A stretch of DNA of 64,000 nucleotides, taken from the sequence record MZ502379.1; one strand, 5' to 3'. A program made the position numbers and the translations under genes. Source of the stretch: Escherichia phage vB_EcoM_Shinka. Below are positions 19,244 through 62,898 of the stretch, piece by piece. The notes beneath the pieces were generated by a model. It was not told the DNA's origin. It searched no databases and saw only the letters and a list, made by a program, of their open reading frames with translations. Each line of letters starts with the position of its first letter. Within the stretch, counting starts at the first letter, position 1.

Positions 19244-19297
19244 TCCTCATGTTATGTCAGTAAGACTACTATAACACAACACGAGGGACTTGTAAAC
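19244..19297 (-). promoter_or_regulatory. T4-type early promoter plus leader/SD; copy 1 of an exact 54-bp repeat
   Basis: Minus strand reads GTTTAC, 18-nt spacer, TATAGT, then leader with GAGGA; identical to 35182..35235. Confidence 0.55.
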
Positions 19298-21354
19298 TAC
19301 ATTTTGAACTTTTTAGACATTCCGTTGATGTTAACCAAAGAAGCTAAGATTTGAGAAACTTCATTTTCCTCTTCTTTTGATTCTTCTACAAGGAATTGAT
19401 TAAATCCAGCCATTGGACGAACTTCACCAGTTTCCATTAGATGGTCTCCATCATATACTGATTCTTCTAATTGTTCAGAAGGAGGAACGATTGTACCTTC
19501 GATTAGATACTTGTTATAAGCAGTTTCTTTCATAAAGTACGTACTTACTTTATTAATCTTCAGTAAAATTCCACGCGGTAGAATAACTTCAGCTTCTGAT
19601 GGAAATCCTGATAAATGACCTGGAACGATAACTTTGATTCGCTCAGCTCCTTTAATTACCATACCCACACTAGTTTCAGCATCTTCATTAGCATATGTAG
19701 AATGACTACCCATATGCATCAAATCTTCTGCATCAACGGAACCTTCTCCTTCACCAGAAAATACTGCTCCGGAATCATCTAGAGCCATATAGTTTTTACC
19801 ATGCTCACCGAAGATATTTGGTTTAAGCGATGTGGATACGAAGTTCTTGAAATAGAACATTTTGTTTTCAATGTTATGACGCAAAGTTTTAAATGTAACT
19901 TCTTGTCCACGGTAAAGTGTAGTTCCTGGAGGAAGAACTGAACCTTTAGCGAATGCAGAATCCAACGTCTCGATGTGCTTAATAGCTCGTTCCATATATT
20001 CTTCACGGGTAGAATCTGGTTTACCCAAAAGGAACGAGTTCATTTCAACATATGAATCTGCACAATAATCTTCAATTACATCAGATTCAGCCTGAGTCAG
20101 TCCTTTTGGAGCTACTTCGGTGCTTGCGTATTCATATGCCTGGGCAGCAGATTCATTAATCAATTTATAAATGCCATTCATGACAAATTGAATAATAGCT
20201 GTCTTTTCATCTGGTGTGGTTTTAGAACCTTTAACTAAATCATTAATAATTTTCTTAATAACATCAAAGCTATTAGAAATATTAATGTCAGCAAGATCGC
20301 TTAAAATTTTATCAGTTTTATAATCAAAGAATTCTTTATTCTTTAAATATTCTTGAGAACCTTGATATGTTATATCGCTCTGCAACTTGATAGATGGATC
20401 ACGTAAACGTGCATGGGCCAATGCAATATGATTTCGGAAGCTTTCTAGTTCATAATCGTTAGATTTAAAACGAGAAGCACTTCTCATACCACCGATAGCT
20501 CCTTTGCTGAAGTTTGAACCAATCTGAATAACGCCAGAGTTCATTGGTCCTTCTGCTTTATATACCGGAACTTTAGATTCAAACTCTTGATATTTCTTAG
20601 CAGCGAAGCTATCACCCTGAAGTGAAGCATCAACAGTAGAATATTGAGCTTGTGCTGCTAATCGACGACTAATTTTAGTTTTCTGAATAACAGCTTGGTC
20701 CGTGCGCTTATCATTTTCTAAAGCAATAGAAGCAGCAACAGCGACAGCTTTAGGAACAGCATTACCTGTTTTAACATCTACATAAACATCACCGACCTTT
20801 GATTCAACTTTTGTGAATAACTCAGTTGAAATAGGAGGTACACCTGGAATGTCTTCTAAATTGGCATTTTTACGGTAAACCATAATATATGCGTACTTTT
20901 TATCATAGTCCCAGATTTCCTTTAAAAGAACATATCGACCTGCTCCTTTAGTACGTACTAAACGGTCAGCAATAACTTGCATTTGACGAGCTGCGCCATT
21001 TGTTTTACTCTTTAGTACGCGGAATAGGCATGCGTCGATTTTATACTGCTTCATTGTTTGAAGAGCAGTATCAAAAACAGCATTAATGACGCCAATTGGA
21101 TTTCCACCCAAGTTTCTAAGCTTAACCAGCGATAATTTCTCGTTGACACCTATCATTACGATATGCATCATTTTATCGCCTGGCTTAACGTTTTTATTTG
21201 TATCACCACCAGAGGTGTATGTACAAAATCTAAATCCAGGAAGCACGCTTTCTTCGCCGGCTTGGATAGCAAAAATTTGTGGTATTTTATGCTTAGGATT
21301 TAAGTTAACAACCGGCGCCGAAGCGCCGTCAAATAATTCTGTAATAAGTTCCAT
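19297..21354 (-). CDS. Alt-like NAD-protein ADP-ribosyltransferase, paralog 2 (685 aa)
   Basis: C-terminal R-S-E ART motifs (LYRG, FVSTSL, EAEV); N-terminus MELITELFD shared with the neighbouring paralog. Confidence 0.8.
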   Translation of the reverse strand: MELITELFDGASAPVVNLNPKHKIPQIFAIQAGEESVLPGFRFCTYTSGGDTNKNVKPGDKMMHIVMIGVNEKLSLVKLRNLGGNPIGVINAVFDTALQTMKQYKIDACLFRVLKSKTNGAARQMQVIADRLVRTKGAGRYVLLKEIWDYDKKYAYIMVYRKNANLEDIPGVPPISTELFTKVESKVGDVYVDVKTGNAVPKAVAVAASIALENDKRTDQAVIQKTKISRRLAAQAQYSTVDASLQGDSFAAKKYQEFESKVPVYKAEGPMNSGVIQIGSNFSKGAIGGMRSASRFKSNDYELESFRNHIALAHARLRDPSIKLQSDITYQGSQEYLKNKEFFDYKTDKILSDLADINISNSFDVIKKIINDLVKGSKTTPDEKTAIIQFVMNGIYKLINESAAQAYEYASTEVAPKGLTQAESDVIEDYCADSYVEMNSFLLGKPDSTREEYMERAIKHIETLDSAFAKGSVLPPGTTLYRGQEVTFKTLRHNIENKMFYFKNFVSTSLKPNIFGEHGKNYMALDDSGAVFSGEGEGSVDAEDLMHMGSHSTYANEDAETSVGMVIKGAERIKVIVPGHLSGFPSEAEVILPRGILLKINKVSTYFMKETAYNKYLIEGTIVPPSEQLEESVYDGDHLMETGEVRPMAGFNQFLVEESKEEENEVSQILASLVNINGMSKKFKM

Positions 21355-21357
21355 GAT

Positions 21358-23445
21358 TTATCCTTGAACGAACTTGTAAGGCATGTTTGTAATATCTATG
21401 CAAGACGCAATAATTCCAAGAGATGATTCTGCTTTCTGTTTAACATTTGATGAAACAAATGATGCAAAGTCAACTCTGTCTTCTATTTCACCTGTCATTG
21501 CAACTACTTCGCCGGTTTCCATTAAACGGTCACCGTCATAAATTACCGATTCGGTGAGTTCTTCGGTGGTCATAACTTCAGCTTGAATGAGTTTTGTATT
21601 GTTAGATGTTGTTCCGTCATTATTAGAAGCATCAGTTATTTTATTAACTTTGACCATCAATCCGCGCGGTAGAATAACTTCAGCTTCTGTTGCTATTCCG
21701 AGACTTCCTGGATATACAACATTAACTTTATGTGCGCCGTCAATTGCCCATCCTATTTGAACTTTAACGTATTCAGGATTTTCTTTATACGCTCTTATTT
21801 CGTTTGGATTAATAGTTATTCCTTCTTCATTTTTATCAACTGTTAATTCATTGCGAGCTTCTGGTTCTAAAAGACCAATACCAGCATGTGTAATTCCAAA
21901 ACGTCCAAAAATGATAGGAGTTAAAGAAGTAGATACAAAATTTCTGAAATAGAACACTTTATTTTTAACTAGCGCTTCATATATAGGAGCAGTCATACTT
22001 TGAGCACGATAAACTGTAATGCCTTCCGGTATACGGTCACCATTTTCAAAAGCTGAATCTAAATTATTTATAGCAGATTCAATTTCTTTTTCACTCATTG
22101 CATCATATCGTTCTGGATTGTAACGACCTAAAAGAAGATTATTAATGTCTGTATATCCTGAGCCACAATATTCTCTAATGCCGCGCTTTTGTGATGGAGT
22201 ATATTTAGAACCATCACGGGCAATAGTAATATCAATCATTGGACCAGCACCAATTCCAGAAAAACTATAAATCATTCGTTTGAGGAATTTAGTTTTTGCT
22301 GCATTCCAGGCATTTTTAGTTATTTCTCCCCAGACTTCATCTGGCTGCCCTTTACGAGTTTTATTATGTTTATCAAGCCAATTATCTTTATATTCTTCAA
22401 AGAATTTATTAATAGCTGCTGCGTATTTCTCTAAACATTTTATTGAAGTAGTTGGTTCATTTTTTATCGCGTTAAAAATTACATCTTTAATTTTTTCTGA
22501 AACTTCATCAACCTCACTTTTTGAAAAGAATTTATAGTCATAGTGAAGTTCATTCGCAGTTCCTTCGGCAATAATTTTTGCTGCCTTAATTTTAGAAGCT
22601 AATGAATTAATTCCAAGCTTCATTTCTTCTGCTTCGGGAATTAAAGGAGCGGTAGCAGGTTTATTGAAATTAGCTGCGGTAGATTCATACTTATGGAATA
22701 ATTCACTTTCAAATCTAGAAGATTCTAATGATTGACTTTGTGCAATTGCTCTACGGGAAATTTTAACTTTAACGATTACAGCTTGGTCAGAACGTTTATC
22801 ATTTTCTTGCGCAATAGATGCAGCAATTGCCTCATTTTTAGTTACTTGAGCTCCAGTATCTTTATTGATATAAACATCACCGACCTTCGATTCAACTTTA
22901 GTAAAGAGCTCGGTACTAATTTCCGGAACTCCTGGAATGTCTTCTAGTGATACATTTTTGCGATGTATAAGAATATATGCATACTTTTTATCGTAATCCC
23001 AGAGTTCCTTAAGAAGGACGTATCTGCCACCTGAACGACTACGGATAAGTCTATCAGCAATAACTTGAATTTGTCGAGCTTGGCCAGCAGTTTTAGACTT
23101 AAGAATACGAAGCATACAAGCATCAATTTTATATTGACGCATAGTTTGCATTGCAACAGTAAAAACTGAATTGATATAATTAATTGGGCTTGGACCAAGA
23201 CCTTTTAATTTAGCAATTGAACCTTTAGCAGTTAATGTAAAAGGAACAATATGCATCATTTTATCGCCCATTTTTAAATCGCGATTAGTATCACCTCCAG
23301 ATGTATAGGTACATAAACGAAAGCCTGGTTGTTCAATTGCGTCATCAACATGAACTGAAAAAATTTGTGGTATTTTCTTCTTTGGATTTAAGTTTGTAAT
23401 CGGAAGAGTAGTATCTTCGTCAAATAATTCTGTAATAAGTTCCAT
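21358..23445 (-). CDS. alt: Alt-like NAD-protein ADP-ribosyltransferase, paralog 1 (695 aa from second Met)
   Basis: R-S-E motifs (VYRAQ, FVSTSL, EAEV); N-terminal MELITELFDE; late promoter upstream. Confidence 0.8.
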   Translation of the reverse strand: MELITELFDEDTTLPITNLNPKKKIPQIFSVHVDDAIEQPGFRLCTYTSGGDTNRDLKMGDKMMHIVPFTLTAKGSIAKLKGLGPSPINYINSVFTVAMQTMRQYKIDACMLRILKSKTAGQARQIQVIADRLIRSRSGGRYVLLKELWDYDKKYAYILIHRKNVSLEDIPGVPEISTELFTKVESKVGDVYINKDTGAQVTKNEAIAASIAQENDKRSDQAVIVKVKISRRAIAQSQSLESSRFESELFHKYESTAANFNKPATAPLIPEAEEMKLGINSLASKIKAAKIIAEGTANELHYDYKFFSKSEVDEVSEKIKDVIFNAIKNEPTTSIKCLEKYAAAINKFFEEYKDNWLDKHNKTRKGQPDEVWGEITKNAWNAAKTKFLKRMIYSFSGIGAGPMIDITIARDGSKYTPSQKRGIREYCGSGYTDINNLLLGRYNPERYDAMSEKEIESAINNLDSAFENGDRIPEGITVYRAQSMTAPIYEALVKNKVFYFRNFVSTSLTPIIFGRFGITHAGIGLLEPEARNELTVDKNEEGITINPNEIRAYKENPEYVKVQIGWAIDGAHKVNVVYPGSLGIATEAEVILPRGLMVKVNKITDASNNDGTTSNNTKLIQAEVMTTEELTESVIYDGDRLMETGEVVAMTGEIEDRVDFASFVSSNVKQKAESSLGIIASCIDITNMPYKFVQG

Positions 23446-23468
23446 CATAGCCTCTCTAGTGTTTATTC

Positions 23469-26902: not shown

Positions 26903-27096
26903 ACTAATTCCTTTAATCCGTAGATAGGAGATAATTCATCACCCATACGAAGGTCTTCATTTCCATCTACCCAGGAAACAATATAAGCCTCTTTTATTTG
27001 AATACCACTCCATTTAAATGGAGGTAAAACCTTAGAAATTAATCCAGGTATACCAACTCCCTTTAATTCAACGGTTTGACCTAAAAAGAATTTCAT
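26899..27096 (-). CDS. Hypothetical protein
   Basis: 65-aa ORF in track. Confidence 0.4.
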   Translation of the reverse strand: MKFFLGQTVELKGVGIPGLISKVLPPFKWSGIQIKEAYIVSWVDGNEDLRMGDELSPIYGLKELV

Positions 27097-27434
27097 TAAA
27101 ACCTCATCTGAAAACCGTGCGATTTAACATTACCGCCGCCAATATCAGAGATATTAATTTCGCGCGCAATTGAAGGGTCAATGTCAATTTCGCGATTGAG
27201 TTTAGTGATAGCTAAAGTATCACGCCCATTTACAGTACGGAACTCTAAAGGACAAACCACATCAACGTAGTTTTTAATAGATTCGCTAGTAGGTTGCAAA
27301 TGAGCAGGAAGGTCTTTGGGCGCCTTTGAGAAAACCACTTCACAGAAATTTTTACGGGTATCAAAATAAGTAGTCATAAACATAACATTTTCCTCAGTAA
27401 GGGGCCAAAGCCCCTCATTTATTTTAAATATCAA
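27096..27434 (-). CDS. Hypothetical protein
   Basis: 112-aa ORF in track. Confidence 0.45.
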   Translation of the reverse strand: MIFKINEGLWPLTEENVMFMTTYFDTRKNFCEVVFSKAPKDLPAHLQPTSESIKNYVDVVCPLEFRTVNGRDTLAITKLNREIDIDPSIAREINISDIGGGNVKSHGFQMRF

Positions 27435-27789
27435 ATTCGTTAAGAACTACATCAAAGATTGCTTCAAGATGCTCAGGTTTAGCTCTGTTACTCAGAATAT
27501 GACGAATCCAAGTTTTAACCAAAAGCTTGCGATTAACGCCATTCCAGCAAGGATGAGTCCCTAAATCGCGTTCACGGAAATCATCATCCAGAGCGATTTT
27601 AAAGTTGGAACCTTCCATCGTGATTGAAACCGTGATACCGTTTTCAAATCGCATATAAACGTAATTAGGAGTCATATACTGCTCAATTTCGCATACTGAT
27701 CCATTTTGATGTTTCCAAAGGCAAATAGTATCAATAGAACCTGCAATACCATTAGAAACATATTTACGTTCAAAGTTGATGTAGTTCAT
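27424..27789 (-). CDS. Hypothetical protein
   Basis: 121-aa ORF in track. Confidence 0.45.
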   Translation of the reverse strand: MNYINFERKYVSNGIAGSIDTICLWKHQNGSVCEIEQYMTPNYVYMRFENGITVSITMEGSNFKIALDDDFRERDLGTHPCWNGVNRKLLVKTWIRHILSNRAKPEHLEAIFDVVLNEFDI

Positions 27790-33914: not shown

Positions 33915-34204
33915 TTATCCTCTTTTAACTCTTGACGATAATAACATATCATAGTTTTCTGATCATGTACATATCGTTTTACATCATTAAGCCAAATGCG
34001 AAATTCCTGGGAATCTTCAAATGGCATACCGACCCAAGCTTTACCATCAATAACTTTAACTTGCCAAGATAGTTTAGCTTCATCATATGACTTTATTTGT
34101 ACAGGCCAATTAGGATGAACTGTTTCTTTCTTTACTTCTAGAGGCTTTGTCGAACAACCAACTAGAAGACCAATAGATAATATTACTGCTGATAGTTTAA
34201 TCAT
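33905..34204 (-). CDS. Outer-membrane spanin (o-spanin) lipoprotein
   Basis: 99 aa; signal peptide with lipobox LLVGC|S; overlaps i-spanin gene end. Confidence 0.55.
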   Translation of the reverse strand: MIKLSAVILSIGLLVGCSTKPLEVKKETVHPNWPVQIKSYDEAKLSWQVKVIDGKAWVGMPFEDSQEFRIWLNDVKRYVHDQKTMICYYRQELKEDKCK

Positions 34205-34554
34205 TTAGAAAGGTCCTGGATGTCTTCTGCGAACTTGTTGAAGGAGTTGTTGATTTGTTTTTCAACCAATCCTGGCTTATGAGCCACCACATCCGCCTTC
34301 TTTGCGTCTTTGCGCAGTTTTTCATTTTCACGCTCAATAGCAGCAATTGCCTCACGATTTTTATTATTCATCGCATCAATATAATTATACTGAATTCGCA
34401 AATTATTTAATGCTAAAGCGTTTTCATTGGCCGTTTTTGTAATTTCTACAACAGACGTTTCTAATCTTTCAATTTTATTTTTTAAAATTAAAGAAGTTCC
34501 GCCCAATGCAATTACAATTAATAGCAAGCCTGCTGTCGTATTACTTAATTGCAT
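34201..34554 (-). CDS. Inner-membrane spanin (i-spanin)
   Basis: 117 aa; N-terminal TM helix then coiled-coil periplasmic domain; directly upstream of o-spanin. Confidence 0.55.
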   Translation of the reverse strand: MQLSNTTAGLLLIVIALGGTSLILKNKIERLETSVVEITKTANENALALNNLRIQYNYIDAMNNKNREAIAAIERENEKLRKDAKKADVVAHKPGLVEKQINNSFNKFAEDIQDLSK

Positions 34555-35178
34555 AAAGTTTTAATAACCTCTATAATATCGTCTTGAGAAAGACCGTTAA
34601 TTAAAATATGATGTTCAGCCGGAGATTTAGAAATTTTAAAGCATGCCTCAACATCTTCTGCCATATCCGATGCGCTACGATTTGGATTACTAATTCCAAG
34701 ACGATGTTTTCCCGTTAAAGGATTAACGATGATATAGCATTTCAGCCGGAGATTTAGAAATTTTAAAGCATGCCTCAACATCTTCTGCCATATCCGATGC
34801 GCTACGATTTGGATTACTAATTCCAAGACGATGTTTTCCCGTTAAAGGATTAACGATGATATAGCATTTACAGTTGTTAATATGAACATTAGGTTGAGTC
34901 TGATTAATGAACACATCGCAATCATATTTCGCAAGCTGATTTTCTAAAAAGACTTTCATCTCCTCAACCGCATCAGGAAGCATATCACGGGCTTGCTCAA
35001 GACGACGATTTCGATATTCTTTAATGGTCGTTTTCCGCTTGACTTGCTTAGCTAAATCTTTCTTAAGATCGGTGATATATCCAACTCGACGATTTCCTTT
35101 AAATACAGAAATCCCATCTGTAGTATCACCGTATGCTTCAACGACCATTTCAGTAGTAATAAGCTGCAAATCCATCAT
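34545..35178 (-). pseudogene. alc: alc (host-transcription inhibitor) disrupted by a 127-bp tandem duplication
   Basis: Two overlapping ORFs (34723..35178 and 34545..34826) share an identical 43-aa segment in different frames; collapsing the duplication restores one ORF of about 167 codons at the T4 alc position. Confidence 0.6.
34614..34869. repeat. Perfect head-to-tail tandem duplication, 2 x 127 bp
   Basis: Copy 1 about 34614..34742 and copy 2 about 34741..34869 read as identical; junction shares short cag microhomology. Confidence 0.85.
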
Positions 35179-35181
35179 AAA

Positions 35182-35235
35182 GTCCTCATGTTATGTCAGT
35201 AAGACTACTATAACACAACACGAGGGACTTGTAAA
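35182..35235 (-). promoter_or_regulatory. T4-type early promoter plus leader/SD upstream of alc; copy 2 of the exact 54-bp repeat
   Basis: Identical to 19244..19297. Confidence 0.55.
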
Positions 35236-35239
35236 CAGC

Positions 35240-36827
<1,588 letters not shown>

Positions 36828-36835
36828 AATAAAAT

Positions 36836-36849
36836 GGGCCTTGCGGCCC
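36836..36849 (-). terminator. Hairpin between nrdB and denA
   Basis: gggccttgcggccc stem-loop. Confidence 0.45.
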
Positions 36850-36854
36850 ACTCC

Positions 36855-38033: not shown

Positions 38034-38084
38034 AAATTTTCCGCTTAGTTAATAGATAGTGACTCGTCCGTGAGTCAAATTATA

Positions 38085-43423: not shown

Positions 43424-43732
43424 CTACTTTTTGAAAGTTTTTCGCAAAAGTTCAATGATTTCATCTACATTGTTTTCGTCTACAATGCAGTGAATTTTTG
43501 TTACACCAGAAACCAGGTCTTTGACTTCATCTTCTTCAGAAGTCGGTTCTTTATATTCTCGGAAACAATAAAACTCTTCTTCACTAAGTTCAAAATAATC
43601 ATCACCCATACCATCATCATTATAGATTTCACCATTAGCACAAATGATTTCGGTTACATAATCAAAGCCATCTAAACTTGATATTGATTTAACTTCAAAC
43701 CAACCACCATTTTCTTGAATGATGCCGACCAT
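43424..43732 (-). CDS. Hypothetical acidic protein (frd.3-like)
   Basis: 102-aa ORF in track. Confidence 0.45.
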   Translation of the reverse strand: MVGIIQENGGWFEVKSISSLDGFDYVTEIICANGEIYNDDGMGDDYFELSEEEFYCFREYKEPTSEEDEVKDLVSGVTKIHCIVDENNVDEIIELLRKTFKK

Positions 43733-43854
43733 ATTAGCATTTGATGAACTAATATCAATGAAAGATTTAATACGGTGTGGATTTAACTCGTATTTTTGCC
43801 GATTTCCATTTTGATTTTCCTCATTTTAATAGGGGCTTAATAGCCCCTTGATAA

Positions 43855-44118
43855 TTATTGTTCAATCATTCCCATGTAAAATTCTGTGTCTTCAGCATCC
43901 ATACCATCACAATATTCATTAGCCATAAAGCGGGTGAGGTCTTCAAGAGGACCTTCAATAACGATTTGAATACTCCAAAACTTAGAATCTTGCACGCTTG
44001 TGATACTAAGTTCAGGATAACGATTACGAATAATCTCTTCAATATATTCAAAATCAACGATGTCAATATCAACTTTAGCCATATTATTTTCCTCTTTAAT
44101 CATCAGCAGTATTGCCAA
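43855..44118 (-). CDS. Hypothetical protein
   Basis: 87-aa ORF; early promoter-like sequence at about 44123-44155. Confidence 0.45.
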
Positions 44119-44179
44119 TAGTTGTATAGTACCATGGAAGAACAGGGATGTAAACAGTTTTGTGAAAAAATTTTGAAAT

Positions 44180-44206
44180 AAAAAAGGGGACCCTAGAGGT
44201 CCCCAA
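44180..44206 (-). terminator. Terminator downstream of gene 32
   Basis: Hairpin ggggaccctagaggtcccc followed by T-run on minus strand. Confidence 0.5.
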
Positions 44207-44226
44207 TTAATTAGTAATATAATCTA

Positions 44227-45135
44227 TTAAAGGTCATTCAAAAGGTCATCCAGGTCCGTGTCATCAGCACTAGATGAACTGCCAGAGCTTGAGCTCATAA
44301 AATCATCTTCAGTTTTTGTATTGAAGTCATCAACATTGAATGCATCCAAATCATCAGCAACTTTATCAGCTTTCTTAGCAGCAGTTGCAGCGGCACCGCC
44401 CATCACAGCAGTTCCCATAACTTGACCGAATTTAGTATTCAGTTCTTCAAATGATTTGAATTTATCTTTAGAAGTCATTTCAGAAAGGTCAACCATTTGT
44501 TCGAACAGTTCTTTCTGGAAAGATTCATCATCAATGTTTGGAATCGCAGATTGATTCAGGAATTTAGATTCGTCGTAGTTACTAAATCCAGAAACCTGTT
44601 TAACTTTCAGTACAAAGTTAGCACCTTCCCACGGACAAGTTACATCAACCGGAGTTTCACCCATTTCAACATCAACCGCAATCATCGCGTTGATTTTATC
44701 CCAGATTTTCTTACCGAAACGATATTTAAATACTTTACCTTCATTTTCTGGAGCAGCTGGGTCTTTTACAACAAGAATATTAGCCCAGTAAGAAGTTTTA
44801 CGTTTAACAAGACTGTACTCTTTATTGTCAGTGTTGTACAGATCATTTTTACTGATGTACTGACATACTGGGCAAGAATCGTAATCACCATGGGTAGATG
44901 AACATGTTTCAATATACCATTTACCATTTTTCTTGAAACCGTGATTTACAAGAATTGCGAATGGTGCTTGTTCATCATTTTTAGACGGAAGAAAACGAAT
45001 TACTGCTTGACCGTTACCCGCATTGTCGAGTTTCAGTTTCCACTCGCCTTTATCTTCAGAAGAAAAACCACCTTTATTTCCAGCCAGTTTAGCCATTTGT
45101 GCAGCGAGTTCAGCAGTAGATTTACGTTTAAACAT
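44227..45135 (-). CDS. 32: Single-stranded DNA-binding protein gp32
   Basis: 302 aa, recognised T4 gp32 sequence incl. acidic C-terminus. Confidence 0.95.
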
Positions 45136-45167
45136 TTTTATTTCCTTTTTAATTTAATTAACAGTTG

Positions 45168-45202
45168 GTGCTATGACGATGTATGACCTCATAGCTGGTC
45201 AG
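45168..45202 (-). promoter_or_regulatory. Gene 32 translational operator with 5' H-type pseudoknot
   Basis: mRNA UGACC-A-GCUAUGA-GGUCA-UACAUCG-UCAUAGC forms two interleaved stems, followed by A/U-rich leader. Confidence 0.5.
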
Positions 45203-45234
45203 TGAGATAATTATAATCTATTTATAATAAGCAA

Positions 45235-45888
45235 TTAATACTTGCAAGATTTCACAGTTTCAATGAAAACATTTTTAGCTTTCTGTGAATCAATATTTAA
45301 AATTTTTCTATAAGCCTTTAACTTTATAGAATAATTATTCCAGACTAAATTATCAGTCTGTTCATCGTGTTTATCAATTATATTTAAAAACGAATCAAGC
45401 AAGATAAACGTTTCAAACGAAATTATATTCGATTGAAGTAGTTTAAAAATATAACTTGACTGAACCTTTGGATTATATTCAAAGATTTCTTTAAAAGCAG
45501 AAACTTCAACTTTCTTACTAAAATAATAAATGTTGCGAATATCTTCTTCAAACTTAAATTTAATTTGCTTTAAGCGTCCGATATATTCACGATAAAACAC
45601 AAGTGCATCAGCGTCAGAGATGTCGCCAATCCAAGCATCCTGGTTAGCAACAAGATTGCTTATAAAGATTAAAGCAAGTTCCTTTAATTTATATTTTTCT
45701 GATAACTTCTGGAAAAAATACTTATCCCTTCGCTTTTGATAAGCGGCATCAGACACCCGCATGCACCAATTATACTTAATTACATCATACTTTCCATTCA
45801 TATGTTGTTTTATCATTAAGTATAATTTATAAACTGATTTACCATCAATGTATCTTTCACCACCAGCAGGCATGCGGAGTTTAATCAT
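45235..45888 (-). CDS. 59: Helicase loader gp59
   Basis: 217 aa as in T4. Confidence 0.9.
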   Translation of the reverse strand: MIKLRMPAGGERYIDGKSVYKLYLMIKQHMNGKYDVIKYNWCMRVSDAAYQKRRDKYFFQKLSEKYKLKELALIFISNLVANQDAWIGDISDADALVFYREYIGRLKQIKFKFEEDIRNIYYFSKKVEVSAFKEIFEYNPKVQSSYIFKLLQSNIISFETFILLDSFLNIIDKHDEQTDNLVWNNYSIKLKAYRKILNIDSQKAKNVFIETVKSCKY

Positions 45889-46223
45889 AGTAGAAAATCT
45901 AATGTATTAGTTTTTTCACAACGAACAACAGAAGGACGCAAAAGATTTTCGTCGATAGCTTCTGACTGAATTTTTTCAATTATACCCGAAGGAATAAATT
46001 TAGCAAATTGAGTTTCAGGAATAGAGTTTTCTTCCAAGAATGCTGTCGTAGCTTCAAGATAACTCATTCCAAATTCTTCTACCATTTTTTCAATAATAAA
46101 TCCATTTTCTTGGCGGTCAAGAAGCTTTGCAATTTCATCCTTTTCTTTCTTAATTGAAAGTTCTTTTTCTGAAAGCCCGGCCTCATCGACCGGGCGAATA
46201 TCATTTAGAGAAAACTGTGTCAT
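45885..46223 (-). CDS. 33: Late transcription co-activator gp33
   Basis: 112 aa from MTQFSL (track ORF starts 3 codons upstream). Confidence 0.8.
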   Translation of the reverse strand: MTQFSLNDIRPVDEAGLSEKELSIKKEKDEIAKLLDRQENGFIIEKMVEEFGMSYLEATTAFLEENSIPETQFAKFIPSGIIEKIQSEAIDENLLRPSVVRCEKTNTLDFLL

Positions 46224-46470
46224 AAAGTTCAACTACCTCTTCAGTTTCAGCTTCAAACACATCACGGTTATCTTTATGATACAAAGCTAATAGACGATTA
46301 AACATCTTACCATCAACGCCAAGTTCATCTTTAGCACGAATTCGAATATCTTTAATCAATTCATTATAACCAGAAATTTTCAGTTTATGATCAGATGCTT
46401 CTTTAATAAATTTAGCCAAGTCTTCGCCATGGATAGCTTCATCAAATTCAACCATTTCTTTTTTAGCCAT
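46201..46470 (-). CDS. dsbA: Double-stranded DNA-binding protein DsbA
   Basis: 89 aa as in T4. Confidence 0.8.
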   Translation of the reverse strand: MAKKEMVEFDEAIHGEDLAKFIKEASDHKLKISGYNELIKDIRIRAKDELGVDGKMFNRLLALYHKDNRDVFEAETEEVVELYDTVFSK

Positions 46471-46478
46471 TATTCACC

Positions 46479-47396
46479 TCAAAATTCATTAATGCTATTA
46501 GTTAATTTAGAAAGACCCGCTTTTACAAAATATGAATAAATTTTGCCGCGCGGTGGTAATTTATATGAATTATAGTAATTCACAATGTTTGAAGCAATAT
46601 TATCAGGAATATAATCAAAATCAATTAGAACTAAATTTTCTTTATAACGATTATATTCAGATTCTGTGAGAAGCACCTTAGCTTGCTCACGGTCATTAGC
46701 AATAGCTTCAACAATAGAGGTTTTCATTGAAGGAGTTCGTTCACCTTCAACTCTGGTAAACCAAAAGTCAGATCGTACTTTAACTGAAGCAACGTTATCC
46801 TTTTTGTCGCCTTTAAGGATTTTAGTCATACAGTCAATTTCAGCAGAACCGCTTTTAATTTTAACCCATTTCTTGTGCATCGGTGACCATTGCTTAACAT
46901 TTGGATATTTGTGAAGTTGAGTAAAGTCACCATCCGATGAAATGATTAAAATCTTGTGTCCTTCTAAAGAGAACTTTTTAACAAGAACAGCAATGTGGTC
47001 ATCTGCTTCATACTTATCAATATCCATAACAATGTATGGCATATAAGCTTTTAATTCATCTATAACTTTATGACTGGATTCAAAATAACCTTCCCAGTCC
47101 CAAGTAGATTCTTCTCGTGCTTTTCCACGGTTTTTCTTATAATAATAAGCGAAATCACGACGCCAGTATCCAGATTTCGCGTTATCAATACATAGTACAA
47201 TTTTAGTGTATCCAAGCGTTTTTGCTTTTTTGACATTAAACTTAATTGAGTTCAATATCAAATGACGAACCATTGATAAATTAATTTTTTCTTTATCTGG
47301 GAAGTTTACCAGAGCAGTTGAAAGAGCAATTTGACTAAAGTCAATAAAGCAAATTCCTTCTTTGTAATCTTCATCCAGCATCATTTCTAAATCCAT
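46479..47396 (-). CDS. rnh: RNase H (5'-3' exonuclease, FEN family)
   Basis: 305 aa from MDLEMM (track ORF starts 5 codons upstream). Confidence 0.9.
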   Translation of the reverse strand: MDLEMMLDEDYKEGICFIDFSQIALSTALVNFPDKEKINLSMVRHLILNSIKFNVKKAKTLGYTKIVLCIDNAKSGYWRRDFAYYYKKNRGKAREESTWDWEGYFESSHKVIDELKAYMPYIVMDIDKYEADDHIAVLVKKFSLEGHKILIISSDGDFTQLHKYPNVKQWSPMHKKWVKIKSGSAEIDCMTKILKGDKKDNVASVKVRSDFWFTRVEGERTPSMKTSIVEAIANDREQAKVLLTESEYNRYKENLVLIDFDYIPDNIASNIVNYYNSYKLPPRGKIYSYFVKAGLSKLTNSINEF

Positions 47397-53215: not shown

Positions 53216-56164
53216 ATGGCTACTTTAAAACAAATACAATTTAAAAGAAGCAAAACTGCAGGTCAACGTCCTGCTGCTTCAGTATTAGCCGAAGGTGAAT
53301 TGGCTATAAACTTAAAAGATAAAACAATTTTCACAAAAGATGACTCAGGTAGTGTTATAGAATTAGGTTTAAAATATGGAGGAACTATAAATGGGTCTTT
53401 AGAGGTTACAGAAAATATAACTGGAACTTTAATTGGAAATTCTAGCACAGCTACTAAATTGCAAACACCTAGGAAAATTAATGGTATATCTTTTGATGGG
53501 TCAAAGGACATTACCTTAACTCCATCTGACATAAATGTCAATAGCACAACATTTATAAAAAATAATGGCGAATTACCTACTGATGCTAATTTAGATACGT
53601 ATGGGCCCATTGAAGAATATCTTGGTGTTTGGTCGAAATCTACTTCAACAAATGCGCAACCAGCAAATAAATTCCCAGAAGAAAATGCCGTAGGTGTACT
53701 AGAAGTATTTGTGGCCGGCCAATTTGCTGGCACTCAGCGTTATACTGTAAGATCTGGTAACGTCTATATTCGTTCCTTATCTGCTAAATGGAATGGCGTC
53801 GATGGTCCATGGGGTGTGTGGCGTAATGTTCAAGCGTCAACTCGTCCACTTTCACAAACGATTGACCTTGATAGCTTGGGAGAATTAGAACATTGTGGCT
53901 TATGGAGAAACAGTTCAAGCGCAATCGCATCATTTGATCGCCATTATCCAGAAGAAGGATCAGCCGCACAAGGATTTTTAGAAATATTTGAAGGTGGTTT
54001 ATACACAAGAACGCAGCGTTATACTACCCGCATGGGTATGGTTTATACTCGTTGTCTCGCTGCTGCATGGGATGCTAGTGCACCTAAGTGGGAGGAATGG
54101 AAGCAGGTTGGTCATGGCACACCAGCGACTTTCTATGACGGAGATCTGAATGATTTTAAAACTCCTGGATTATATAATATTTTAGGCACTGATGCCGTTA
54201 TTAACTGTCCTACCGGTGAAGGTTTGCCGACTGTTATTGTTGGTTTGCTGGAAGTTAAACAGCGTGCTTCTGGCGGTGCTATTTTCCAAAAATTTACTAC
54301 TGCCGGAACGGGTGCAACTACTCGCGATCGTATTTTTGAGCGTGCATATACTGGTGGTGTGTGGGGTGCATGGAACGAAGTATATACATCTTACTCTCTG
54401 CCAATTACTTTAGGTATGGGTGGTATTAAAGCTCAATTAGCGGAGTTAGATTGGCAAACATTTGATTTTGTTCCTGGTAGTATGTTTAGCGTTCCTTTGA
54501 ACAAAATAAAGAATATGCCAGCAAATATGGATTGGGGCACGATTGACGGAAACTTGGTTATGTTTTCTGTCGGTCCTAGCGAACACACTAGCACAGGGCG
54601 TACTGTTCAGGTTTGGCGTGGTACTGTATCCCAGACAAACTATCGTTATTTTGTCGTTCGTGTGTTCGGTAATTCTGGAAATAGAACTTGCACAGTTCGC
54701 CGTGTTGTTCTTGAAGACGGATCACATACTTGGACTGCTCAACAAAACTTTAGGGGATTGCTGAATATCACTGCTGCTGTTAATCTTGGTGCTAATCAGA
54801 AAATTTCACTTGCTCCAGGAGCATATATTCAAGCCCCTGCTAGCGGTTCTGGTTCTAATACTTACGCAAATCAGAATATTACCATTGCGCCATTATATCA
54901 GGCTATTGACGATTCAAATAAAAGCCAGTTTGCGCCAATTGTTAAACAGAAAAACACTGCAACAAATATTACTATGGCTTCTGGTATGGATATTGCTAGT
55001 TCAGAATATCGTATCGTTGCTCAGGGTGATTTATCCGCTACTGGAACTACAGCCACTGAATTAGCTACATGGCGTTTCTTGCCATCGGGCCGATTCATGT
55101 CACAAAGTCGAGTTTATGCTGGCGCAGCATTCTTGAACACTGATGGTAACATCAGTGGTTCAATCTGGAAGAAATATAACAATGCAACCAATTTAGATGC
55201 TGCCTTGAATACTCGCCTAGGTAAAGGCGGTGATACGATGACAGGTCGGTTAACAATCAATGCACCTAATGATTCTATTGTATTATCAACAACTGCTAGT
55301 AATTCTTTGCATATTCGCGGTGACATAGACGGGACTGGTAACTGGTATATTGGCAAGGGTGGTGCTGATAATTCGCTAGCATTTTATAGCTATGCTTCTC
55401 AGGCGGCAGTATATATCACAAACAATGGTGAGATTGCGTTAAACCCGCAAAATACCGCAATGGTTAACGTTAACCGTGACCGTGTACACATTAACGGTTC
55501 TGGATGGATTGCTAGACAACCGGGTGATTGGGACAACCAATGGCGAGTAGAAGCTCCATTATTCGTTGATCATGGTTATGTTGGTCAAGATAGTTATTAT
55601 CCTATTCTTAAAGCAAGAAGCGTTATAACCAATCAAGGATATAGCACCGCTGTTGACTTTGGTATGCGTCGTATTCCATCACAGTGGGGGCAAGCAATCA
55701 TTCGTGTCGGATCCACGGAGGCTTCTCCTGATGCTGGACACCCACAAGCTGTGTTTGAATTCCATCATGATGGATTCTTTTATACACCAGGAAATGGTAG
55801 CTTTAGCGATGTGTATATTCGTTCCGATGGTCGTCTTAAGATTAATAAAAAAGAGCTAGAAAACGGAGCACTTGAAAAAGTATGCCGACTGAAAGTTTAT
55901 ACATACGATAAGGTTAAGTCTATTAAAGATCGTAGCGTTATTAAACGTGAAGTTGGTATTATTGCTCAGGACCTTGAAAAGGAATTACCGGAAGCTGTGT
56001 CTAAAGTTGAAGTTGATGGTTCTGATGTTCTGACAATTTCTAACTCCGCTGTAAATGCTCTTTTAATTAAGGCTATCCAAGAAATGAGCGAAGAAATTAA
56101 AGAATTAAAAACGCCTTTCTTCACTAAAATTGCTCGCAAAATTAGTAATTATTTTAAATTCTAA
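53216..56164 (+). CDS. 37: Long tail fibre distal subunit gp37 with C-terminal intramolecular chaperone domain
   Basis: 982 aa; C-terminal 110 aa carry S74-type chaperone motifs ([29 protein letters not shown]). Confidence 0.9.
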
Positions 56165-56170
56165 CAACAA

Positions 56171-56186
56171 GGGGCTTTGCCCCTTT
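56171..56186 (+). terminator. Hairpin after gene 37
   Basis: ggggctttgcccc followed by ttt. Confidence 0.5.
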
Positions 56187-56196
56187 GGAGATAATT

Positions 56197-56979
56197 ATGG
56201 CAGTAGTTGGTGTTCCCGGTTGGATTGGAAGTTCATCCGTAAATGAAACGGGTCAGCGCTGGATGAGTCAAGCGGCTGGTCAATTAAGATTGGGTGTTCC
56301 TTGCTGGATGAGTCAATTTGCAGGTCGCTCACGAGAAATAATTCACACGCTTGGAGCAGACCATAACTTCAATGGTCAATGGTTCCGAGATAGATGTTTT
56401 GAGGCAGGTAGTGCACCTATAGTGTTTAATATCAATGGAGATTTAGTATCATATTCTAAAGATGTTCCTTTATTCTTCATGTATGGAGATACACCCAATG
56501 AATATGTTCAGTTGAATATACACGGCGTAACGATGTATGGTCGTGGCGGTAATGGCGGTAGCAATAGTCCTGGCTCAGCTGGGGGTCATTGTATTCAAAA
56601 TGATATTGGTGGGAGACTAAGAATTAATAATGGCGGAGCTATTGCAGGCGGCGGTGGCGGCGGTGGCGGCGGATATTATTCTCCTTTTTCACAAATGAGA
56701 TTGACCTTTGGCGGCGGCGGTGGGCGTCCGTTTGGTGCACCTGGCGGATCTATTGATATGCAATCAGGAGCGACTGGCGGTACTATTTCTGCACCTGGCT
56801 CAGGATCCGTGAATGGTATCTATAATGGTGGAAACGGTGGTGAAGTAGGTTCCGCGGGAGGTAGATGCAATATTCGCGGTCAAGGATCTGAATATAATGG
56901 CGGCGATGCTGGTTATGCCGTCATAGGGTCCGCTCCAACGTGGATAAATGTTGGAGCAATATATGGTCCAAGAGTATAA
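56197..56979 (+). CDS. 38: Receptor-binding adhesin gp38, T2/T6 type with glycine-rich motifs
   Basis: 260 aa from ATG at 56197 (SD GGAG upstream; track start is TTG at 56185); several Gly-rich blocks separated by variable segments. Confidence 0.85.
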
Positions 56980-59758: not shown

Positions 59759-60394
59759 TCACAGTTCAGATGCTACGGTGATTACAGCTTCAATGTTTTC
59801 TGCCGAGCGTTTAATGTCAAGATACACATTACCGTTTTTAGCGATTTTACATGACATTCCGATATCAGTAAATTTCTGAATATGATGTTCCATCATTTTG
59901 TATCCAAAAATTCGCATATTTCCATTGTTGTTAATTTCAAAATTACGAATTCCGTGAGTGCGTTTTTCTAAAATAGCGAGATAATTACTACGATAAGTTT
60001 CAACCTTTTTAAGAACAAATCCATTTTCATCTAAAAGTTTTAACATGAGGTCTTTATCTTCTTCCATATCAGAAGTAATCTCACGAGCTTTACGAGTTGC
60101 TCGTTTTTTCAGCAGTTCCGGAGCATTTTCCTGTGCGTATAAAGTTGCTGCATTTGAAATAATATCCTGAGCTTCACCAGTAATGATTAATCCATCACCA
60201 GATTTCTCCACCAGGCCTTTTTTAATCAATACCCCAATATTACTATTAACTACTGCGTTACCTAAATCTGGATGCACCTCACGAACTTCTGCAGCTGTAA
60301 TGAAATCTTTCTTAGCAATGGTAATTAAAATCGCAGCAGTTTTTTCATTCAGAACATCGTTAGAAGCTTTGATGATGTAAGTTACTTTAGACAT
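59759..60394 (-). CDS. motA: Middle-transcription activator MotA
   Basis: 211 aa as in T4. Confidence 0.85.
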   Translation of the reverse strand: MSKVTYIIKASNDVLNEKTAAILITIAKKDFITAAEVREVHPDLGNAVVNSNIGVLIKKGLVEKSGDGLIITGEAQDIISNAATLYAQENAPELLKKRATRKAREITSDMEEDKDLMLKLLDENGFVLKKVETYRSNYLAILEKRTHGIRNFEINNNGNMRIFGYKMMEHHIQKFTDIGMSCKIAKNGNVYLDIKRSAENIEAVITVASEL

Positions 60395-62299: not shown

Positions 62300-62380
62300 T
62301 CACTGGCGTCCGAAGACGCCTTTAGTTTTAAGATTATTACGATAGAACTGCATCACGTGTTCGTTGTGGAAATTACTCAT
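62300..62380 (-). CDS. stp: Stp peptide (26 aa; activator of host PrrC anticodon nuclease)
   Basis: Hand-translated [26 protein letters not shown] matches T4 Stp as I recall it; below ORF-track cutoff. Confidence 0.75.
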
Positions 62381-62838
62381 TAATACGCCTGCAAAACGAA
62401 TTTAAAATTATCAGCCAACATACGGTTCATTTCTTCAAGTGTTTGATACTCAGAATGATGATTACGAGTAAACGCTAAAGCTAACTGTCCTTTTCCAAAT
62501 CCCGTCGTCAGAGGTTTCATCTTAGAAGCAGGCAGATAAAATACTGTGTATACCATATTGTTATTTGCAATAGTACGTGCAAGCTGAGACCGACGTTGAC
62601 GAATATGACTTAGAACCGCACTGAATCCTTGCTTAGAACGCTGATTACCTACATAAAATCGTGCAGACACACATGGATTACTAAATGGACGACCATCTAA
62701 TTTACTTACTAAAAAGTAAAATCCAGGTTTAGATAAAATGTCTTTATGCGGAGTTCCCAAAAACCATTCACCGCCCTTGATTGTGCCAATAACAGTAGCG
62801 CCTGCATTATTCAGATCAGTAACAGTCATGTATTTCAT
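62380..62838 (-). CDS. Probable nucleoid disruption protein Ndd (size and position)
   Basis: 152 aa from MKYMTV with SD GAGGAA; track ORF extends 16 codons upstream; lies after ac and stp as in T4. Confidence 0.6.
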
Positions 62839-62898
62839 ATTAATTTCCTCTAAATTATTTTCTACTCCAAGGCCGCATGAATACACGCGGCCATTAAA

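Follow-up and report, generated by a model that had tools for sequence, protein, structure and literature searches.

The alc gene in the 64-kb window (the whole stretch of DNA that was analysed) is interrupted by a perfect head-to-tail duplication of 127 bp. This feature is most probably non-biological, an assembly or finishing error recognizable as a perfect tandem repeat of two copies with a period equal to the k-mer of an assembler. We consider it highly likely that the duplication is an untrimmed SPAdes overlap, left behind where the assembly was closed or re-opened, rather than a feature of the phage.

The repeat was located at 34614..34869 with Tandem Repeats Finder (period 127, 2.0 copies, 100% matches, 0 indels, score 512), and it was the single array with a score of at least 60 in the whole window. 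A perfect 127-bp tandem duplication had already been described in the initial annotation, and a base-by-base self-comparison at an offset of 127 agreed with the repeat finder on it, with unbroken identity over 129 nt (34614-34742 = 34741-34869). This match corresponds to the 127-nt unit plus a boundary ambiguity of 2 nt (TT). The first copy of the unit occupies 34614..34740 and is the downstream one on the minus strand, on which alc is encoded. The second copy (34741..34867) abuts the first with nothing between them, and the TT at 34868-34869 also matches the start of the unit. The junction created between the two copies is novel and is represented by the 24-mer GATATAGCATTTCAGCCGGAGATT, and the native boundary sequences of the unit are ...ATATGATGTTCAGCCGG... 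and ...GATATAGCATTTACAGTTG... A perfect repeat of 127 nt in 64 kb cannot be due to chance. In terms of coding content, the unit covers Alc residues about 104-146.

As 127 is not divisible by three, alc seems to be frameshifted and split into two ORFs of 151 and 93 aa within a locus that, as written, spans 34545..35178 on the minus strand. The upstream fragment (34723..35178, minus strand) encodes Alc 1-146 and then five out-of-frame codons (MLYHR), its C-terminal end reading ...SPAEMLYHR before the stop. It matched the PF17527 profile at positions 1-155 of 177 with 262.7 bits and was 100% identical to the Alc of UPWr_E2 across the aligned part. The downstream fragment (34545..34826, minus strand) is a mechanical ORF with a TTG start and no evident start signals of its own. 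Its final 65 residues correspond to Alc about 104-168 in the native frame, and its PF17527 match (116.7 bits) covered profile positions 112-176 of 177. The 43-aa peptide KCYIIV...SKSPAE is found in both ORFs, read in different frames, as (35178-34826) mod 3 = 1, and HHILINGLSQDDIIEVIKTLCN, a stretch of 22 residues, is in frame only beyond the lower-coordinate copy, that is, in the downstream ORF. All of these details (both ORFs, their common peptide, the MLYHR ending and the last 22 codons) had been noted beforehand and hold, and the frameshift logic behind them was exact. As written, the locus offers no single uninterrupted frame of ~165-170 codons, the break falling after residue 146; such a frame appears when one unit is removed, leaving 507 nt or 168 codons plus the stop. 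The initial annotation was therefore right that removal of one copy restores a single ORF, and its length of about 167 codons has to be corrected to 168. The annotation of T4 alc begins at the second Met.

The collapsed ORF matched PF17527 (Phage ALC protein) with 303.8 bits, against a cut-off of 25, over profile positions 1-176 of 177. In tblastn searches its product was 100% identical to the Alc of ECP2301, UGKSEcP1, SH-1 and ECO95 1-6-1, and it shared 98.2% identity with the Alc of a T4-derived record. The full-length profile match and an identity of 98.2-100% to known Alc proteins bear out the proposal that the gene is alc, and the alignment of the reconstituted protein to T4 Alc, which had been suggested as a check, gave the expected match. 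The position proposed for the gene, between the spanin genes and rnlA, was likewise found to be correct. Downstream lies an intact pseT.3 (34201..34554, minus strand; inner-membrane spanin, Rz-like), which is 99.1% identical to its UPWr_E2 counterpart over the full length and overlaps the alc stop by 10 nt. Upstream lies an intact rnlA (35240..36364, minus strand; RNA ligase 1), 100% identical to that of UPWr_E2. Beyond rnlA lies denA (36417..36851, minus strand; endonuclease II, EndoII), whose 144-aa product is intact and 99.3% identical to that of UPWr_E2 over the full length. The order pseT.3 - alc - rnlA is also that of the annotated relatives Kha5h and UPWr_E2 and of the contigs fetched in the searches described below.

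A 54-bp early-promoter and leader cassette at 35183..35236 (minus strand) abuts the alc ATG and consists of GTTTAC, 17 nt, TATAGT and a GAGGA Shine-Dalgarno sequence. We take its GTTTAC/TATAGT arrangement to fit the T4 early-promoter consensus. Thus alc retains intact expression signals, the early promoter being predicted from this consensus. An identical 54-bp cassette is found at 19244-19297 (minus strand), upstream of a 685-aa gene (19297..21354) that lies beside alt. The 54 bp also precede alc in Kha5h and UPWr_E2, of which UPWr_E2 has a second copy, like the window.

The window comes from a Tequatrovirus that is not T4 itself, and its nearest records are ~97.7% identical over 20 kb. Among relatives, the duplicated form of alc was not seen. 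A query of 1101 nt mapped onto 972-975 nt, the single-copy length, in all 40 matches listed, and alc was continuous, defined as one stretch spanning at least 80% of the protein, in 1135 of the 1136 phage records that encode an Alc homologue. Contigs with an exact PseT or NrdB match were fetched from NCBI genomes, ENA metagenome scaffolds and Logan read-based assemblies, and the 11 that cover alc (3 of them from Logan) all carry it intact, at 167 or 168 aa. The exact PseT match came from three contigs, all of other phages at 96-98.7% identity; for the exact NrdB match, nine contigs among 10 of 18 cover alc, with the gene intact in 9/9. Relatives reached in IMG/VR through PseT were at most 96% identical, and the best match in a nucleotide search with the gp37/38 region was 96.6%. 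A gene-by-gene comparison with UPWr_E2 over ~47 kb identified alc as the sole broken conserved gene, so that the sequence is otherwise clean.

The novel junction itself was equally absent elsewhere. A 72-nt probe centred on it had no match in 50,697 phage records, in E. coli complete genomes or in PLSDB plasmids, and the junction 24-mer had no exact match in IMG/VR, in 185,579 species (one genome each) or in JGI metagenomes. The 151-aa truncated product was absent, by exact look-up, from the 153 billion gene calls of a large assembly collection. A Logan contig (L005) that ends at window position 34619, 6 nt into the unit, was considered as a graph branch at a real duplication and rejected, because an identity of only 98.7% to the window assigns the contig to another phage, and because a branch at k=31 should run ~30 nt into the unit and not 6. 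EC.W15-4 has been reported as the single Tequatrovirus 'lacking alc' (PMC12115623). Its record (PP500713.1) was rejected as a parallel, being a truncated 152-kb record from gp54/gp48 that is unrelated to the window; it was deposited as 'complete' despite the absent alc region. One ENA protein (P0018), on a 697-nt contig, was a chimera of an Alc N-terminus and a ribosome-recycling-factor fragment.

The period of the repeat is itself informative. SPAdes allows k-mers of up to 127, the value with which its default k series for long Illumina reads also ends, and its output for a genome that closes in the graph repeats the first k bases at the end of the contig. The genomes of T4-like phages, being circularly permuted with terminal redundancy, assemble as circles. 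With 127 as the largest k, SPAdes would leave a 127-nt overlap between the ends of such a circle-assembling contig, or between contigs adjacent in the graph. If these ends were joined without trimming, for example on rotation to a conventional start, the overlap would turn internal. The product would be a perfect head-to-tail 127-bp repeat of exactly two copies at an arbitrary position, here inside alc, and the actual phage would carry an ordinary alc of 168 codons. We infer both an assembly with SPAdes at k = 127 and an untrimmed joining of the contig ends or of two contigs.

Artificial end overlaps of 127 bp on SPAdes phage contigs, which are to be trimmed, have been described in several studies (PMC7372960, PMC5923482, PMC8104045), and the length of the repeat was tied to the k-mer in PMC7372960 and PMC5923482. 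In the case of phage U136B, 'terminal repeats of 127 bp' were removed and the genome was then 'reopened to be syntenic' with a reference (PMC8104045). The re-opening of such genomes is routine: roughly one in three of the 40 relatives listed has the locus where the T4 convention places it (132-135 kb, plus strand). The literature found documents the terminal form of the overlap alone, and no report of an explicit internal-duplication form was found.

What an untrimmed overlap would leave is what the window contains: a period of exactly 127, the SPAdes maximum; two copies, no more and no fewer, that are adjacent and identical; and a junction that is missing from independent assemblies of relatives across six collections. 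On a rough estimate, the artefact is favoured by about two orders of magnitude before priors, a length of 127 being the modal one for an artefact and one of hundreds for a spontaneous event. It is also favoured by the intact promoter and Shine-Dalgarno sequence, by the collapsed protein being 100% identical to orthologues that look functional and by the lack of any other sign of decay. The initial annotation had left the choice between a genuine alc-null variant and an assembly artefact; the coincidence of 127 with the SPAdes maximum k-mer favours the latter and not the former.

The boundaries of the duplication also bear on its origin. Its end points share 2 nt (TT) only, and at least 2 extra matching bases were present in 17% of simulated random 127-bp joins in this genome, so this microhomology is at chance level and gives no clear sign of slippage between direct repeats. 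It may count against a genuine and very recent 127-bp duplication within alc, produced by replication slippage or illegitimate recombination and fixed in the sequenced stock, which we regard as unlikely. The duplication is, nevertheless, present in the sequence as given, and in a gene whose promoter and Shine-Dalgarno sequence remain intact. In addition, alc is dispensable for T4 growth, and T4 can be grown without it in the laboratory. T4-type phages do form tandem duplications via illegitimate recombination, and a neutral lesion can become fixed in an isolate through plaque purification. Mutations of alc are also known to have arisen spontaneously, as in T4GT7 (PMC12115623). Against these points, a real event would have had to hit exactly the length of the SPAdes overlap, which is improbable, yet possible, and the two copies show zero divergence. 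The absence of the junction from all other sequences in the six collections and the intact alc of essentially all relatives likewise count against a real lesion. Perfect tandem repeats of ~127 bp are, moreover, unstable in T4, which is highly recombinogenic, and we know of no selection for alc loss in a phage with hmC DNA, nor is any evident here.

The consequences that a real lesion would have can be anticipated from the segment that is lost. Its 22 residues belong to the best-conserved parts of the family: in homologues with as little as 38% identity, L150, N152, I159 and C167 do not vary, and D157, E161, I163 and L166 hardly do. An AlphaFold2 model of Alc built from the homologue alignment (mean pLDDT 92.3) places the lost residues in the C-terminal domain, as a beta-strand (148-154) and the terminal helix (156-167), with pLDDT values of 91-97 by 10-residue block. 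Since the lost segment is conserved and is modelled as a strand and a helix, a real lesion would almost certainly be a null allele: its product, transcribed from the intact early promoter and consisting of Alc 1-146 followed by MLYHR, would leave the phage functionally alc-null. Alc would then no longer terminate transcription of the host (dC) DNA, and the other T4 shutoff functions would remain. That the window represents a natural alc-null, wild Tequatrovirus retaining denA and, presumably, hmC DNA strikes us as improbable. Such a wild T-even phage without the Alc arm of host-transcription shutoff would be a modestly to moderately interesting natural knockout. The loss might be due to drift, among other causes, or might have been selected by a host function that detects the shutoff of transcription, and both host takeover and the frequency of generalized transduction might change. 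No usable literature linking Alc to a defence triggered by transcription shutoff (ToxIN) was found.

The same Alc model provided a separate structural observation. It has a small hairpin at the N-terminus, one very long helix (35-81) and an alpha/beta domain at the C-terminus, and its best matches among solved structures were to the 'double-wing' DNA-binding C-terminal domain of T4 MotA (1kaf, 5jlt). Foldseek gave a probability of 0.99-1.0, a target-normalised TM of 0.54-0.55, an E of about 9e-3 and 14% identity for this pair. A kinship of the two proteins was unsupported by sequence profile comparison (hhalign probability 0.2%), and the fold resemblance, which comes from a predicted model, is a weak one that may serve as a lead only. 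This lead is notable because Alc is said to contact neither DNA nor RNA (PMC2988021) and because no solved Alc structure was found. MotA is encoded at 59759-60394 in the window.

In classical dC-DNA strains of T4, alc mutations occur together with lesions in 42, 56 and denB, often joined by one in denA. The initial annotation had brought up alc loss as the classical adaptation to unmodified cytosine. On this reading, the phage would be a dC-DNA-adapted strain like T4dC/T4GT7 in which alc loss was selected to free the late transcription of unmodified-cytosine DNA. We give this possibility hardly any credence. Growth of T4 with unmodified cytosine classically requires alc loss (PMC2988021, PMC12115623), as Alc terminates E. 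coli RNA polymerase on dC-DNA and not on hmC-DNA by a mechanism that is not known (PMC2988021); the passage of PMC2988021 that treats this dC-specific termination credits it to Kashlev et al. 1993. In T4GT7, amber mutations affect 42 and 56, a deletion extends from rIIB to gene 52, and alc has mutated spontaneously; the deletion of T4GT7-type strains removes ndd and denB (PMC12115623). The phage studied here is not T4, however, its nearest relatives at ~97.7% being environmental Tequatroviruses. It also has an intact denA, an intact ndd at 62380..62886, and both motA and gene 52. Since ndd and gene 52 are present, no region-D deletion of the T4GT7 type reaches them. No joint loss of the hmC pathway and the dC nucleases was found within the window, which runs from the head genes to ndd and leaves 42, 56, denB and the glucosyltransferases outside. 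With denA and ndd intact in a phage of environmental type, the link to unmodified cytosine drawn in the initial annotation found no support in the window. No description of the classical alc alleles at the molecular level was found in the literature consulted (PMC12115623).

Further differences from UPWr_E2 (PP418986.1) were observed along the window. The distal long-tail-fibre gene gp37 is a single ORF of 982 aa (53216-56164, plus strand), and the corresponding region of UPWr_E2 (43596-46932) is annotated as two CDSs of 699 and 406 aa. The adhesin gene gp38 (56185-56979) has only 68.8% identity to its UPWr_E2 counterpart, and its exact sequence was found nowhere on record by exact look-up. 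An Alt-like RNA-polymerase ADP-ribosyltransferase gene (21358-23448, minus strand) is only ~70% identical to the UPWr_E2 counterpart in a genome that otherwise shows 97-99%; by sequence comparison this locus appears to be a locally divergent or exchanged module. The adjacent gene at 19297..21354, encoding the 685-aa Alt paralogue, is 99% identical. UPWr_E2 also contains homing-endonuclease genes in the nrdB/nrdA gap (27058-27789) and in the gene 32/59 gap (34981-35613), and both are missing from the window (about 38034-38084 and about 45136-45234). In T-even phages, mobile endonucleases usually show such presence/absence polymorphism.

The main value of the feature lies in quality control. Taken at face value, it would suggest a T-even phage that is naturally alc-null, a rarity, and gene callers would report two spurious fragments of Alc, a well-studied host-shutoff factor that is mechanistically unresolved. 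As alc is used as a marker for low generalized-transduction risk in the choice of T4-like therapy phages (PMC12115623), a false 'alc-broken' call could misclassify a phage. A simple and general screen for such errors would be to look for perfect tandem repeats of two copies with a period that matches an assembler k-mer (127, 99, 77 or 55).

The feature can be compared with four known systems. The gene itself resembles T4 Alc (alc/unf, PF17527) in its end-to-end profile match, its 98.2% identity and its neighbours pseT.3 and rnlA. It differs in being split by a frameshifting duplication of +127, the first ORF being without the last 22 residues. With the spontaneous alc mutants of dC-DNA T4 strains (T4GT7, T4 beta-alc) it shares an alc that is inactivated, on paper; in contrast to those strains, it belongs to a phage other than T4 that has kept denA and ndd intact (42, 56 and denB lie beyond the window). 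Tandem duplications of T-even phages generally arise between short direct repeats and are unstable. The feature is similar to those formed by illegitimate recombination in that a short internal segment is repeated head-to-tail, but here the boundary homology is 2 nt and the length equals an assembler constant. The SPAdes end overlap differs in one respect, as the documented repeats lie at contig ends and were trimmed, whereas the repeat in alc is internal and would need an additional joining step. Otherwise the correspondence to that overlap is close: a repeat of exactly 127 bp, perfect, in two copies and at an arbitrary position, in a genome of the type that assembles as a circle.
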